DNA of 64,000 nt from assembly GCA_016283075.1 (NCBI GenBank), contig JAEEMF010000026.1:5270-69269 (forward strand). The letters are read 5' to 3'. Origin of the DNA: Bacilli bacterium. GTDB taxonomy: Bacteria > Bacillota_I > Bacilli_A > RF39 > UBA660. Positions 24,592-27,294 of this stretch are shown piece by piece. The notes under the pieces were generated by a model. That model had not been told where the DNA came from and made no database searches. It saw only the letters and a program-made list of their open reading frames with translations. The translations under genes were made by a program, and so were the position numbers. The first letter of the stretch is position 1; every line of letters begins with the position of its first letter.

Positions 24592-26139
24592 ATGAATACA
24601 TTTTTTAGATTTTTTTACGAATTTATTTCAATATTCTTTGACGGACTTATATCTGCATTCAAAGGATTATTTAGTGGAATAGGAACTATGTTTAACTTTA
24701 GTGATTATAGTAAAATCATTAATAGTTATAAAGATAGTTTTGAAGGTAAGGAGTGGCTATTTGTAGGTATCTCAGTTGCCTTTATAATAATTATAGTTGG
24801 TTTAATAGTAGTACTTATTTTCTTTGCAATAAGAAGATTTATAAGATATAGAACTACTAAATTAAATCAGAATGAATTATTAGATGAAATAAGTGAACTT
24901 AATGATAAAGTAAGAAAACTTATGAAAGAAAAAGATGAAATCCTTGCTATGAAAGTTTCTCAGCTTGGTATTAAACCAGGAGAGAAAGAAGAAGAGGAAA
25001 AGGATACTGATACTGAATCAGATGAGGAGGAAGTTCCAAAAGATCTTGAAGATAATCCAGATATTAGATTCCCTAAACTTGTTCAAATTGATAGAGAAAG
25101 AGAAGGATTTAAACCTAAGAATTATGGTAATAGTTTTACACTTGCAGAACTTATTGAAGACTTTAGATGTTATGCTGCAAGTCAGTTAAAACTATATTAT
25201 GATTTAGATTTATTAAGACCATTCTTTGCAGGTCTTGCTTGTGGTAAGTTAATTATCTTACAAGGTATTTCTGGTACAGGTAAAACTTCCTTAGCACATG
25301 CTTGGGGAAAATTTGTTAAACAAGATTCCTGTGTATCTCCAGTAGAACCATCTTGGAGAGATAAATCAGACTTCCTAGGATATTTCAATGAATTTACTAA
25401 AAAATTCAATGAAACAAAAGCACTTGGTGAAATTTATAATGCAGGATTTGATGATGATATTCATACAATAATCCTAGATGAAATGAACTTAGCGCGTGTT
25501 GAATATTACTTTGCTGATTTACTATCTATCCTTGAAATGCCAGATAGAAGTGAATGGCTTGTTGATATCGTTCCATCTTCTTGGCCAAAAGATCCAAAGA
25601 ATATTGTTAAAGGAAAATTAAGACTTCCTGGAAACCTTTGGTATATTGGTACAATCAATAACGATGACTCAACATTCATGGTAACAGATAAAGTATATGA
25701 CCGTGCTATGCCAATCGATATTAATACAAAAGTAGATCCATTTAAATGTAGAGAACAAGAAGCAATTGATATTAACTCAAGTTACTTAGAAAGCTTATTT
25801 GCTGAAGCTATAGATAAATATCCAGTATCAGCAAAAGGACTTGAACTTGTACATCAAATGGATGATTATGTAATAGCACATTTCCGTGTAGCATTTGGTA
25901 ATCGTATTATGAAACAACTTAATACATTCGTACCAGTTTATGTTGCATGTGGAGGTAATGAATACTCCGGTATTGATTACTTTATAGCTAAAAAGATATT
26001 ACGTAAATTTGATCAATTAAGTATTACATTTATTCGTGATGAAATTGATCCATTTATTAACTGGTTAAATAAAAACTTTGGTAAGGGTGTAATGAAAGAA
26101 TGCATTGCATACCTAGAAACAATTAAAAAGAATATTTAA
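24592..26139 (+). CDS. McrB-family AAA+ (AAA_5) GTPase/ATPase with N-terminal transmembrane anchor, coiled coil and acidic linker
   Basis: TM helix (VGISVAFIIIIVGLIVVLIFFAI). Walker A 'GISGTGKTS'. McrB signature 'IILDEMNLARVEYYFADLLSILE' (cf. LIIDEINRANxSKxFGELxTLLE). 'NLWYIGTINNDDSTFMVTDKVYDRAMPI' (cf. NxxIIGTMNTADRS...D.AL.RRF). Confidence 0.7.
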   Translation: MNTFFRFFYEFISIFFDGLISAFKGLFSGIGTMFNFSDYSKIINSYKDSFEGKEWLFVGISVAFIIIIVGLIVVLIFFAIRRFIRYRTTKLNQNELLDEISELNDKVRKLMKEKDEILAMKVSQLGIKPGEKEEEEKDTDTESDEEEVPKDLEDNPDIRFPKLVQIDREREGFKPKNYGNSFTLAELIEDFRCYAASQLKLYYDLDLLRPFFAGLACGKLIILQGISGTGKTSLAHAWGKFVKQDSCVSPVEPSWRDKSDFLGYFNEFTKKFNETKALGEIYNAGFDDDIHTIILDEMNLARVEYYFADLLSILEMPDRSEWLVDIVPSSWPKDPKNIVKGKLRLPGNLWYIGTINNDDSTFMVTDKVYDRAMPIDINTKVDPFKCREQEAIDINSSYLESLFAEAIDKYPVSAKGLELVHQMDDYVIAHFRVAFGNRIMKQLNTFVPVYVACGGNEYSGIDYFIAKKILRKFDQLSITFIRDEIDPFINWLNKNFGKGVMKECIAYLETIKKNI

Positions 26140-26151
26140 TAAGAAGGGTAG

Positions 26152-27294
26152 TTGATTAATATGGCAAAGCTTTTAGAGAATTCTCTAGATGAACAGTTAT
26201 ATAAAGAAAGTGAATTATTTTCTAAGAAGTTAAATTCTTCTATGCATTTTAATTTGGACTTATCAGGAGATTTACTTGATTTTAGCTGGCTTGATGAAAT
26301 AGAAAAAGCTTGTCCATTTATTGACAATGTAGTTAGAAGACCAAAGCTAACACTTGTTAGAGAAGAGATTACCGTTAAAACTGAAAAATCAAAGAAAGTT
26401 AATGTGTCTAGCGTTAAAGATTTAGCTAGACACACTAACTATATTACTAAAGTAGACACTGCTAAAAGTGAAGTTAGACCAGAAAAAATTCTCGATATTC
26501 GTAATGAAGAAACATATAATATCTATGAAAATAGATTTTTATATACTTTAATAAATAACTTAAATAGATTTTTAATGAAGAAAGAAGATTTACTTAAGAA
26601 TTACGAAGTAGAAAATCATAAACTTCTAGAATATGTTGGTACTACTAAAACAAGTAATGCTGATGTAAGAATAGAAGTAAAATTAACTTCTACAGAAACT
26701 CCCGAAGAAGAAGGAGATAAAAAGTTAGAGAAGACAATTGAAGATGTCAAAGAAAGAGTAAAACAAATAAGAATATATGTTAATAGTTGGTACAAGAGTG
26801 AAATGATGAAAGCTCTTGAAAAAGCTAATGTTCCATTTGTTTTACCACCAATTAAGAAAACAAATATCTTCCTTAAAAATCCTAACTTCCAAGTAGCAAT
26901 GGTACTATGGAATTATTTGCAAACATATGGTACAGATGATGAAGAACAACATAAAGAAGTTGTTGATAACTCAGGCGATGGAAATGTAATTAAGTTTCTT
27001 GATGAATCATTTATGTTTGATTACTTTATATTAAACTCTGTATCACAAAAGAAAAGAGAACAAAAAGAAAAACTATGTAAGGTATCAGTACTGATGCTTA
27101 CAGAACAACTAGATAAAACACTTAGATTCTTAAATGCTAATGGTTATGATTTATCTGAAGAAGAATTAATAGGTAAACTTACTAAACAAATGAGAGAAAC
27201 TAAGAAAGCTAGACTAGTTGGGGCAGAGGATGTTAAAAAGAAATTTGAATCTGCTATAGATGAATACTTAGAAAGGACACAAGATTACTTGTAG
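26152..27294 (+). CDS. Hypothetical partner protein of the McrB-like ATPase (possible McrC/DUF2357-like, unverified)
   Basis: Start lies 13 nt after the AAA+ gene stop, as in McrBC-like pairs. No clear PD-(D/E)xK motif identified by eye. Confidence 0.4.
   Translation: MINMAKLLENSLDEQLYKESELFSKKLNSSMHFNLDLSGDLLDFSWLDEIEKACPFIDNVVRRPKLTLVREEITVKTEKSKKVNVSSVKDLARHTNYITKVDTAKSEVRPEKILDIRNEETYNIYENRFLYTLINNLNRFLMKKEDLLKNYEVENHKLLEYVGTTKTSNADVRIEVKLTSTETPEEEGDKKLEKTIEDVKERVKQIRIYVNSWYKSEMMKALEKANVPFVLPPIKKTNIFLKNPNFQVAMVLWNYLQTYGTDDEEQHKEVVDNSGDGNVIKFLDESFMFDYFILNSVSQKKREQKEKLCKVSVLMLTEQLDKTLRFLNANGYDLSEEELIGKLTKQMRETKKARLVGAEDVKKKFESAIDEYLERTQDYL

Follow-up and report, generated by a model that had tools for sequence, protein, structure and literature searches.

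A membrane-anchored McrB-family GTPase and its McrC-derived partner within a conserved SipW signal-peptidase locus of Bacilli

We describe a locus of about 20 kb and 14 genes in which a membrane-anchored McrB-family GTPase and an McrC-derived DUF2357 protein are embedded among SipW-type signal peptidases and secreted proteins. Judged by its sequence, the locus matches the label CoCoPALM, a published but experimentally uncharacterised type. We consider it reasonably probable that the locus is a CoCoPALM-type system in which the GTPase and a nuclease-less McrC partner were exapted from restriction and became the cytoplasmic, membrane-tethered NTPase module of a SipW-dependent apparatus for processing and assembling fibre or adhesin proteins. 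The GTPase would most probably act as a GTP-driven motor or switch in the SipW-dependent formation of surface fibres, not in restriction.

Results

Organization and conservation of the locus

The analysed DNA (the window) is a stretch of 64,000 nucleotides of contig JAEEMF010000026.1 from a Bacilli bacterium, and all coordinates refer to it. The locus has the following features.

9228–15746 (+): upstream part, with a 233-aa TM protein, three large secreted 'AWF' paralogues (463, 445 and 383 aa) and a 549-aa soluble protein
16660–21641 (+): three secreted proteins of 1175 aa ('PSLARF', a putative adhesin), 185 aa ('MTYSIF') and 294 aa ('FSYAKY')
21700–22227 (+): SipW-like paralogue, 175 aa, without catalytic Ser and His (putative pseudo-peptidase); weak SipW match (0.0022); in 39 of 41 loci
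22364–24589 (+): SipW/EAL-like fusion, 741 aa, assigned by TIGR02228 and the fold of the module
24592–26139 (+): McrB-family (NxD branch) AAA+ GTPase, 515 aa, assigned from the ORF, McrB profile matches and PADLOC
25264–25287 (+): Walker A of the GTPase, G225-ISGTGKT-232
25471–25488 (+): Walker B, McrB-type 'ILDEMN' (I294–N299, with D296, E297 and N299), aligning with 'IIDEIN' of McrB
25657–25668 (+): GTPase signature N356-N357-D358-(D/E)359, 'NxD followed by D/E', from the orthologue alignment and PMC11090510
26152–27294 (+): McrC-derived partner, DUF2357 (PF09823) plus a C-terminal helical/coiled-coil half, nuclease-less in the predicted structure
27305–27874 (+): SipW-type signal peptidase, 189 aa, with the catalytic GSM Ser and TH(K) His; TIGR02228 at 2.6e-21; in 41 of 41 full loci
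27906–29138 (+): secreted protein, 410 aa, signal anchor ending in '..TLAWF', last gene of the operon; in 41 of 41 loci
29216–29845 (−): convergent secreted protein, 209 aa ('..NTYSRY'), with its own promoter-like site at 29901–29873; in 40 of 41 loci

Genes of the operon are separated by 2–30 nt. On the + strand, no terminator-like site was found between 18777 and 29137, and one lies at 29137–29154, at the end of the 410-aa gene; from this spacing and the terminator-free stretch, the genes probably form one transcription unit. No tRNA genes were found.

As the earlier note had recognized, the pair is embedded in a SipW locus. TIGR02228 peptidases lie on both sides (22364–24589 and 27305–27874). 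At least 397 species representatives carry a relative. Counting only fully flanked loci of other species (n=41), we found the order EAL-like module, GTPase, DUF2357 protein, SipW and secreted protein in every one, so that the recurrence of the pair with SipW elsewhere, which had been put forward as a check, is established for all 41. Within 10 kb of this core, the AWF family is present in 30, the 233-aa protein in 24 and the 549-aa protein in 21 of the 41 loci, and homologues of the 9228–15746 genes stand downstream of the core in group-2 loci, for example L067. Because the neighbours are the same in all fully flanked loci, a chance insertion of the pair is contradicted.

Of all genes of the locus, that of the GTPase is the best conserved: its median identity is 69.5% and 57.7% in the two groups, compared with 26–55% for the other locus genes, and it ranges from 54 to 81% across hundreds of species. 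An alignment of 36 GTPase sequences lists 215 invariant columns. A decaying McrBC remnant with no current function would fit the loss of the DNA-binding and nuclease domains, but it is hardly conceivable here, with both ORFs intact in about 80 loci and the catalytic motifs invariant; the conservation effectively refutes decay.

More distant TM-anchored relatives occur in other contexts, namely next to giant LRR_5 proteins, with a TgpA-like transglutaminase, or as duplicated GTPase genes, and no recognisable SipW was found near them. The association with SipW is therefore demonstrated for this orthologous group, not for the membrane-anchored clade as a whole.

The GTPase is a TM-anchored member of the McrB family

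The 515-aa protein consists of a conserved hydrophobic N-terminal segment (residues 1–34), a TM helix (~57–80), a helical stalk (~88–126), an acidic linker (127–158) and the GTPase domain (~190–515). The TM helix is the single strong one (best 19-residue window 62–80, KD 3.55), and since its C-terminal flank (IRRFIRYR) carries a charge of +4, the AAA+ domain should be cytoplasmic. The stalk contains a conserved LNQxELLxEIxxLNxxVxKLMKEK sequence, and the linker has a net charge of −12. A domain scan of residues 1–160 gave no match to a DNA-binding domain. This architecture agrees with the earlier description of the N-terminus.

The McrB motifs reported earlier at 24592–26139, among them G353-TINNDD-359 and D370-R371, are present as quoted and invariant in the 36 orthologues, as are Walker A and Walker B; both Walker motifs were also found in most of 150 GTPase representatives. 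N356-N357-D358 is invariant in the 36 orthologues and position 359 is D or E. Many of the 150 representatives read GTANxD without the second D, which excludes an NxxD reading. According to the text of Bell et al. (PMC11090510), NxD usually followed by D or E, in place of the NxxD of McrB, is the signature of the NxD branch.

In the PDB, a search with the single GTPase sequence retrieved McrB (6hz4, E=0.008), and a profile search retrieved McrB alone at E≤0.01 (6hz4 at 1e-4, 6ut6 and 7vsr). By these comparisons its relationship to McrB is closer than that to MoxR-type or other AAA_5 proteins. A MoxR-type AAA+ identity was considered and rejected: McrB is the only family among the PDB sequence matches, with no MoxR-type protein, and the partner is a DUF2357 protein rather than a VWA protein.

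The partner is an McrC N-domain protein

From its TTG start, the partner ORF at 26152–27294 (+) encodes 380 aa. The start is probably the ATG at 26161 (377 aa), because the database orthologue P0121 is 100% identical and has 377 aa. Residues 57–155 match DUF2357 (PF09823) with E=1.9e-9 and 37.6 bits, above the Pfam cut-off of 23.3, and PF09823 was found in 118 of the 120 partner homologues listed, the remaining two being short fragments. A coiled coil, a feature of McrC homologues of this type, is present. No PD-(D/E)xK nuclease fold was found in the predicted structure, a model of moderate confidence (pLDDT 66.6). On this model the partner is an McrC N-domain protein without the C-terminal PD-(D/E)xK nuclease. 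The suspicion that the partner has no nuclease signature was justified. Neither of the outcomes that would have spoken for plain restriction or for a MoxR identity was obtained: the partner has no McrC nuclease fold in the model, and it is McrB rather than MoxR that the AAA+ domain resembles.

No nuclease, HEPN, toxin or other effector domain was detected by Pfam and NCBIfam scans in any gene between 9228 and 29845. These results bear on the idea that the locus still serves anti-phage or anti-plasmid defence of the CoCoNuT/type IV restriction kind, with an unrecognised effector or an action at the envelope such as abortive infection or receptor remodelling by the secreted proteins. Several observations fit that idea: the GTPase matches the PADLOC candidate model PDC-M26A (2e-38), soluble relatives of it occur on conjugative plasmids, and other members of the NxD McrB clade are predicted defence systems in the text of Bell et al. 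(PMC11090510). However, about 14 genes without a nuclease, HEPN or effector domain, a partner that is predicted to be nuclease-less, invariant synteny and a GTPase conserved over hundreds of species are unlike fast-evolving, patchy defence genes. A scan of viral contigs revealed no relatives. In tblastn searches of phages and plasmids, we found GTPase-domain relatives only, at ≤38.5% identity and with the TM part absent, and no full-length GTPase. The locus is chromosomally inherited. We regard a defence function as improbable. The first alternative of the earlier note, a defence pair that happened to be inserted here, is contradicted by the fixed neighbours, the top conservation, the lack of a nuclease and the lack of a full-length phage or plasmid counterpart. 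Its second, in which a membrane-associated NTPase was recruited to fibre assembly or secretion, agrees with all the evidence and with the published CoCoPALM label.

The upstream gene joins a SipW peptidase to a degenerate EAL-like module

The 741-aa fusion consists of a SipW-type peptidase with two TM helices (residues 1–161), an acidic/lysine-rich linker, and a cytoplasmic helical bundle with a degenerate EAL-fold domain (residues 361–741, nt 23444–24589). The module upstream of the GTPase has about 330 aa and a degenerate EAL (beta/alpha) barrel fold; in structure it comes closest to the EAL domains, likewise degenerate, of LapD and FimX, and it gave no Pfam EAL match. Only F190, Y218 and Y261 are invariant in both groups, and E234, K272, K275 and G315 are near-invariant. 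The EAL catalytic residues (EAL Glu, Asn, ExxE, DDFG, Lys, EGVE) are not conserved, and no EAL or DDFG motif was seen in either group. Since the Arg of 'EALxR' is not conserved either, the sequences argue against c-di-GMP binding by the module. An Rfam scan for riboswitches, including the c-di-GMP type, was empty.

In group 1 the module forms one protein with SipW, and in group 2 it is a protein of its own; in both, it is encoded next to the GTPase without exception. The fusion may be read as a Rosetta-stone link between the GTPase module and the peptidase. In TIGR02228, the fusion scores 60.2 bits (2e-16) and the 189-aa peptidase 76.1 bits, above the cut-off of 51.85, and both contain the GSM and TH[RK] motifs. 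The 175-aa paralogue (21700–22227) fails on the family cut-off as well as on the catalytic Ser and His, and none of its 63 orthologues retains both catalytic motifs. The locus is thus predicted to encode two active SipWs and one that is catalytically dead.

The locus encodes its own set of signal-anchor proteins

About eight locus-encoded proteins carry a signal anchor of the type '[ST][YF][AS]x[FY]'. Pfam and PDB profile searches with three families of the secreted proteins gave no match, TasA included, and sequence similarity of the secreted proteins to TasA, camelysin or AbpA was not significant. The 185-aa protein reaches E=0.051 against Peptidase_M73 in Pfam, under the cut-off, and hhalign against an approximate TasA query gave E=4.8e-4 with a probability of 32% over 60 N-terminal columns. 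These values suggest that the 185-aa protein may be weakly TasA/camelysin-like. The 549-aa soluble protein has no recognised fold.

That about eight proteins with an unusual common signal-anchor motif are always encoded in the locus argues for dedicated substrates. This weighs against a general housekeeping type I signal-peptidase complex in which the GTPase, the partner and the EAL-like module would act as a secretion regulator, in quality control or, through an FtsB-like stalk, in connection with the divisome. The extreme conservation of the GTPase would suit such a complex, and three SipW paralogues, one of them non-catalytic, are reminiscent of the multi-subunit signal-peptidase complexes of the ER and of archaea. 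FtsB-like homology of the N-terminal region is described in the text of Bell et al. from profile-profile (HHpred) searches (PMC11090510), but DivIC/FtsB was not detected by Pfam in this region at E≤0.1. We judge the housekeeping role unlikely.

Discussion

The type "CoCoPALM" was named by Bell et al. (eLife 2024; PMC11090510) in one paragraph of their text, with the analysis deferred, as an NxD-motif McrB GTPase fused to an FtsB-like domain of TM helix and coiled coil, linked to signal-peptidase-family genes. The locus shares the NxD GTPase, with an N-terminal TM and helical stalk, and the link to signal peptidases, together with an McrC homologue that has a helical/coiled-coil part. The EAL-like partner, the pseudo-SipW, the putative TasA-like substrates, the lineage-wide synteny and the extent of ~20 kb and 14 genes are absent from the text of Bell et al. 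and from the text of two supplementary files, which do not contain the term CoCoPALM; the figures or Supplementary file 1 may show some of them. In the literature, we found no other paper that uses the term, none that links McrB with SipW and none that mentions PDC-M26. The earlier note had missed that the class was named in 2024, that a third conserved cytoplasmic component, the EAL-like module, is present, and that the system extends over ~20 kb, beyond the SipW cluster.

As in McrBC of E. coli and Thermococcus (6hz4, 6ut6, 7vsr), the AAA+ core of the GTPase carries Walker A, DExN and N..D motifs, and the gene of a DUF2357 partner follows directly downstream. The pair differs in that a TM anchor replaces the DNA-binding N-domain, NxD replaces NxxD and the partner is predicted to lack PD-(D/E)xK; furthermore, the pair is chromosomal, syntenic and conserved instead of patchy. 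With the CoCoNuTs (CnuB/CnuC), it has in common the NxD GTPase clade, a helical/coiled-coil N-terminal stalk and McrC homologues that are often nuclease-less, but CoCoNuTs are soluble and always accompanied by HEPN or other nucleases, whereas the GTPase here is TM-anchored and its operon encodes no nuclease.

Based on these features, and by analogy with McrBC structures, we propose that GTPase subunits assemble into a ring beneath the membrane, held by their TM helix and stalk, and that the DUF2357 domain of the partner enters this ring and promotes hydrolysis of GTP. The helical-bundle/EAL-like module, here fused to SipW, would join the ring to the peptidase. Nucleotide-driven movements could then cross the membrane by way of the TM helix together with the conserved hydrophobic stretch at the N-terminus, and would gate or drive the cleavage, release or polymerisation of the ~8 signal-anchor proteins. 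The oligomeric state, GTP hydrolysis by the 515-aa protein, the physical contacts and filament formation are all predictions of this model.

LapD exerts control over an extracytoplasmic, adhesin-processing protease, FimX over a hexameric pilus NTPase. This control logic of the LapD-LapG-LapA and FimX-PilZ-PilB systems, whose degenerate EAL domains the upstream module matches best in structure, resembles the one proposed for the locus. In contrast to those systems, the locus has no GGDEF, HAMP or PilZ domain, the catalytic residues are not conserved and the protease, a SipW, is joined to the module in cis. The B. subtilis tapA-sipW-tasA operon and the archaeal bundling pili (AbpA) likewise combine a SipW-type peptidase with secreted proteins that have a similar signal-peptide end, but are without a cytoplasmic NTPase. 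TasA-type fibres assemble by donor-strand exchange without cytoplasmic energy, and thus the need for an NTPase is not obvious. Type IV pili and type II secretion offer a functional analogy only, in that one locus brings together a signal peptidase of its own, a cytoplasmic NTPase hexamer and several pilin-like substrates; there is no homology, the AAA+ protein being of the McrB type and not PilB/GspE, and SipW being a Ser/His peptidase and not an aspartic prepilin peptidase.

What speaks against the fibre reading is that, in the NxD clade, the majority of relatives with a characterised or predicted role belong to defence, that the TasA match of the secreted proteins is limited to a weak hhalign alignment, and that no recognisable SipW accompanies the more distant TM-anchored relatives.

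A bolder version of the proposal, which we put forward tentatively and as rather doubtful, is an inside-out machine in which an McrB-derived ring, a DUF2357 activator and an EAL-like adaptor act across the membrane through SipW to drive or license the assembly of an undescribed surface filament of 'AWF'/TasA-like proteins. GTP hydrolysis might then be gated by a ligand or partner on the EAL-like domain. If true, hundreds of uncultured Bacilli species of gut and rumen would carry a pilus class that is powered by an NTPase and has no relation to type IV pili. McrBC stands in textbooks as a nucleic-acid motor, and this would be the first non-nucleic-acid function for a motor of its type.

The carriers are abundant, uncultured, small-genome Bacilli of the gut and rumen. 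For these organisms, the locus offers a defined gene set (GTPase, DUF2357 partner, EAL-like adaptor, two putatively active SipWs and one dead, ~8 substrates) and, in the EAL-like/SipW fusion, a specific contact prediction, and it makes the assumption of energy-free assembly of TasA-type/SipW-dependent fibres testable. A conserved, nuclease-free, membrane-tethered McrBC wired to signal peptidases would show the exaptation of a restriction motor for envelope biology.

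The McrB-family GTPase and its DUF2357 partner

The two genes lie in a window of about 26% GC.

24592-26139, + strand: McrB-family GTPase, 515 aa
26152-27294, + strand: DUF2357 partner, 380 aa from a TTG start

The McrB motifs that the earlier note had quoted are all present in the GTPase and are invariant across a 36-sequence alignment: G225-ISGTGKT, ILDEMN (D296/E297/N299), GTIN356-N-D358-D and D370-R371. In the NxD(D/E) signature, D358 never varies and position 359 holds either D or E; in many relatives the second D is missing and the sequence reads GTANxD. Single-sequence and profile searches of every PDB chain matched McrB alone (6hz4, E=0.008 and 1e-4, respectively; 6ut6; 7vsr) and returned no MoxR-type ATPase, which rules out a MoxR identity. 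The GTPase sequence of the window did not reach the Pfam AAA_5 threshold; the PADLOC candidate model PDC-M26A matched it at 2e-38. Its first 160 residues comprise a hydrophobic segment (MNTFxRFFYEFISIFFDG, nearly invariant among orthologues), one strong TM helix (residues ~57-80), a conserved helical stalk and an acidic linker of net charge -12, bearing out the N-terminal TM helix and acidic linker described before. Because positive charges come after the TM helix, the GTPase domain should be cytoplasmic according to the positive-inside rule.

The real start of the partner is probably the ATG at 26161, since a database orthologue with 100% identity (P0121) is 377 aa long. With E=1.9e-9 the partner clears the Pfam cut-off for DUF2357, the N-terminal domain of McrC, which is found in 118 of the 120 listed homologues, the other two being short fragments. 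Modelling the partner with AF2 gave moderate confidence (pLDDT 66.6) and a C-terminal half that is helical and coiled-coil-like. Because the sole conserved (D/E)xK motifs sit within long helices, we found no PD-(D/E)xK nuclease by inspecting this model and the conserved motifs, in agreement with the earlier reading of the partner as lacking that signature.

SipW peptidases, an EAL-like module and secreted proteins

Two SipW-type signal peptidases flank the pair, and the locus encodes a further SipW-like paralogue.

21700-22227, + strand: SipW-like paralogue without catalytic Ser (GSM) and His, 175 aa
22364-24589, + strand: SipW-type signal peptidase (fusion protein), 741 aa, TIGR02228 2e-16
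27305-27874, + strand: SipW-type signal peptidase, 189 aa, TIGR02228 3e-21

The catalytic Ser and His are missing in all 63 orthologues of the 175-aa paralogue that were checked, so it is a pseudo-peptidase, possibly acting as a chaperone or scaffold.

Directly upstream of the GTPase there is always a gene for a ~330-aa module, which is fused to the SipW peptidase in the closer group of loci, including the window (residues 361-741 of the 741-aa protein), and free-standing in the distant group. Sequence methods gave no identification of this module; its AF2 model is confident (pLDDT 84, pTM 0.83) and shows an alpha/beta domain after a helical bundle. As the EAL catalytic signature is absent and only three residues, none of them acidic, are invariant across both groups, the model is read as a degenerate EAL-like domain, which is most likely a binding or adaptor module. 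SipW has a TM helix at its C-terminus, which puts the fused module in the cytoplasm together with the GTPase and the partner. The fusion provides Rosetta-stone evidence suggesting that peptidase, EAL-like module and GTPase act together.

An N-terminal signal anchor that ends with [ST][YF][AS]x[FY] is shared by eight or more proteins of the wider locus (STFAWF, SSYAWF, STYAWL, TLAWF, MTYSIF, FSYAKY, NTYSRY and PSLARF). The secreted proteins had no Pfam or PDB sequence match, a 185-aa family showed a weak alignment to the N-terminal part of B. subtilis TasA (E=4.8e-4, probability 32%, using an approximate TasA sequence) and its camelysin match was below threshold; we therefore only infer their fibre nature. 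The large 'AWF' family, likewise without a Pfam or PDB sequence match, includes tandem copies.

9916-11307 and 11381-12718 (also 12798-13949): tandem 'AWF' secreted paralogues, 56% identical

GC content in the window peaks at these genes (0.34 vs ~0.26), whose products are candidate major fibre subunits.

Operon structure and extent

Nine genes likely form a single operon, given intergenic gaps of 2-137 nt between 16660 and 29138 and + strand terminator-like sites at both ends (the last before the operon at 15728-15759, another at 29137-29154); a weak + strand site (18763-18777) lies inside a 1175-aa gene. An Rfam scan revealed no riboswitch or other Rfam family. Upstream, the system reaches ~9228 and includes genes for a TM protein of 233 aa, for three large 'AWF' paralogues and for a soluble protein of 549 aa. 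The last of these (14097-15746) has no family match and may be a further cytoplasmic component; its link to the system holds in either arrangement of the genes, since it lies upstream of the core in the window and downstream in L067, an example of the distant group (16636-18210). Between the two halves sits a CYTH-domain gene (15928-16494; PF01928, 1e-17), probably a local insertion because none of 81 related loci has a counterpart.

Downstream of the system, an ORF6N-domain protein and a UvrD-like helicase (34555-35382 and 40202-42136) may be part of a mobile or phage-derived segment. Elsewhere, a single 792-aa ORF (49323-51701) joins an amino-acid (carbamate-type) kinase domain to a DcuC-type anaerobic carrier and adjoins arginine deiminase (47075-48343), an unusual enzyme-transporter fusion within the arginine deiminase cluster.

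Distribution and conservation

Database searches yielded more than 8000 GTPase homologues, the best 120 of which are full-length with 68-99% identity (68-81% for all but one near-identical copy), and a scan of one genome per species placed relatives in at least 397 species. All 80 kept loci come from uncultured or metagenome-derived low-GC bacteria of gut, rumen and digesters; their record labels include Bacilli, Tenericutes, Mollicutes, Erysipelotrichaceae, Clostridia, Muribaculaceae and 'Clostridium sp. CAG:567', and we take the carriers to resemble the RF39-type lineage. In 41/41 loci with full 10-kb flanks the genes run EAL-like module, GTPase, DUF2357, SipW, secreted protein, so the association of the pair with sipW recurs in other genomes. 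A convergent 209-aa gene accompanies it in 40 of these loci and the 175-aa SipW-like gene in 39. The distant group has the 233-aa, AWF and 549-aa genes downstream rather than upstream: one gene set in two arrangements. Conservation is much the highest for the GTPase: its median identity is 69.5% in one group and 57.7% in the other, while the remaining genes of the locus have 26-55%; that the system is a decaying remnant is hardly credible.

No relatives occurred in 2.9 million viral contigs, and phage and plasmid records held GTPase-domain relatives alone, at no more than 38.5% identity and without the TM region. The closest plasmid-borne relative, an 813-aa soluble ATPase (L087) on the conjugative IncP plasmid pPNAP01 (NC_008757.1, 136826-139267), adjoins another large AAA protein and looks CoCoNuT-like, in contrast to the chromosomal TM-anchored form.

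Distribution, synteny, conservation and absence from viral contigs indicate a core function with vertical inheritance rather than a defence island. The earlier observation of a GTPase and partner within a SipW locus is confirmed; of its two readings, chance insertion of a defence pair is rejected, and co-option for fibre assembly or secretion is supported. A defence system with an unrecognised effector, to which the PADLOC match might point, is quite unlikely in this setting. A housekeeping signal-peptidase complex or a divisome regulator is also considered unlikely, given the secreted proteins encoded in the same locus.

The wider NxD GTPase clade

Three architectures occur among the 150 closest representatives (at 50% identity) of the GTPase domain: proteins of ~450-560 aa whose N-terminus has one or two TM helices, the type of the window, many of which carry its conserved N-terminal segment; proteins of ~530-840 aa with about four TM helices, one of which is followed by a DUF2357 gene; and soluble, CoCoNuT-like proteins of ~660-920 aa with long N-terminal regions. 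Membrane-anchored members recur beside surface-protein genes: three distant TM-anchored members have as neighbours either giant LRR_5 surface proteins, or a TgpA-like transglutaminase, or a further GTPase gene. These distant loci (L084/L085, 967-14806; L086, 1-21482; L082, 6988-11503) encode LRR_5 proteins of 2750 aa and 1670 aa and a 1141-aa TgpA-like transglutaminase, two of them have a second tandem GTPase gene, and they look like further envelope-linked variants that lack a recognisable SipW. Only in the window's own orthologous group is the link to SipW demonstrated.

Proposed role and relation to published systems

We favour, as reasonably probable, a model in which the GTPase would form a GTP-driven ring tethered beneath the membrane, the DUF2357 partner would activate it, and the EAL-like module would couple it to SipW. 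The ring would then be the motor or switch by which secreted proteins encoded in the locus are processed, released or polymerised. In functional terms, the model has analogies in LapD-LapG-LapA, where a degenerate EAL controls an adhesin protease, in FimX-PilZ-PilB, where a degenerate EAL controls the hexameric NTPase of a pilus, and in type IV pili, which combine a dedicated peptidase, an NTPase and pilins.

An NxD-motif McrB GTPase fused to an FtsB-like TM/coiled-coil domain is described as CoCoPALM by Bell et al. 2024 (PMC11090510), who postpone its analysis to a future paper. The searchable text of that paper and its supplements does not mention EAL, TasA or c-di-GMP, and our literature search found neither later use of the term nor a paper linking McrB with SipW. 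The system type is already named but uncharacterised, so the locus of the window is another member. Beyond the published text that we found, the present analysis adds the putative EAL-like adaptor, the pseudo-SipW and a 14-gene extent with lineage-wide synteny.
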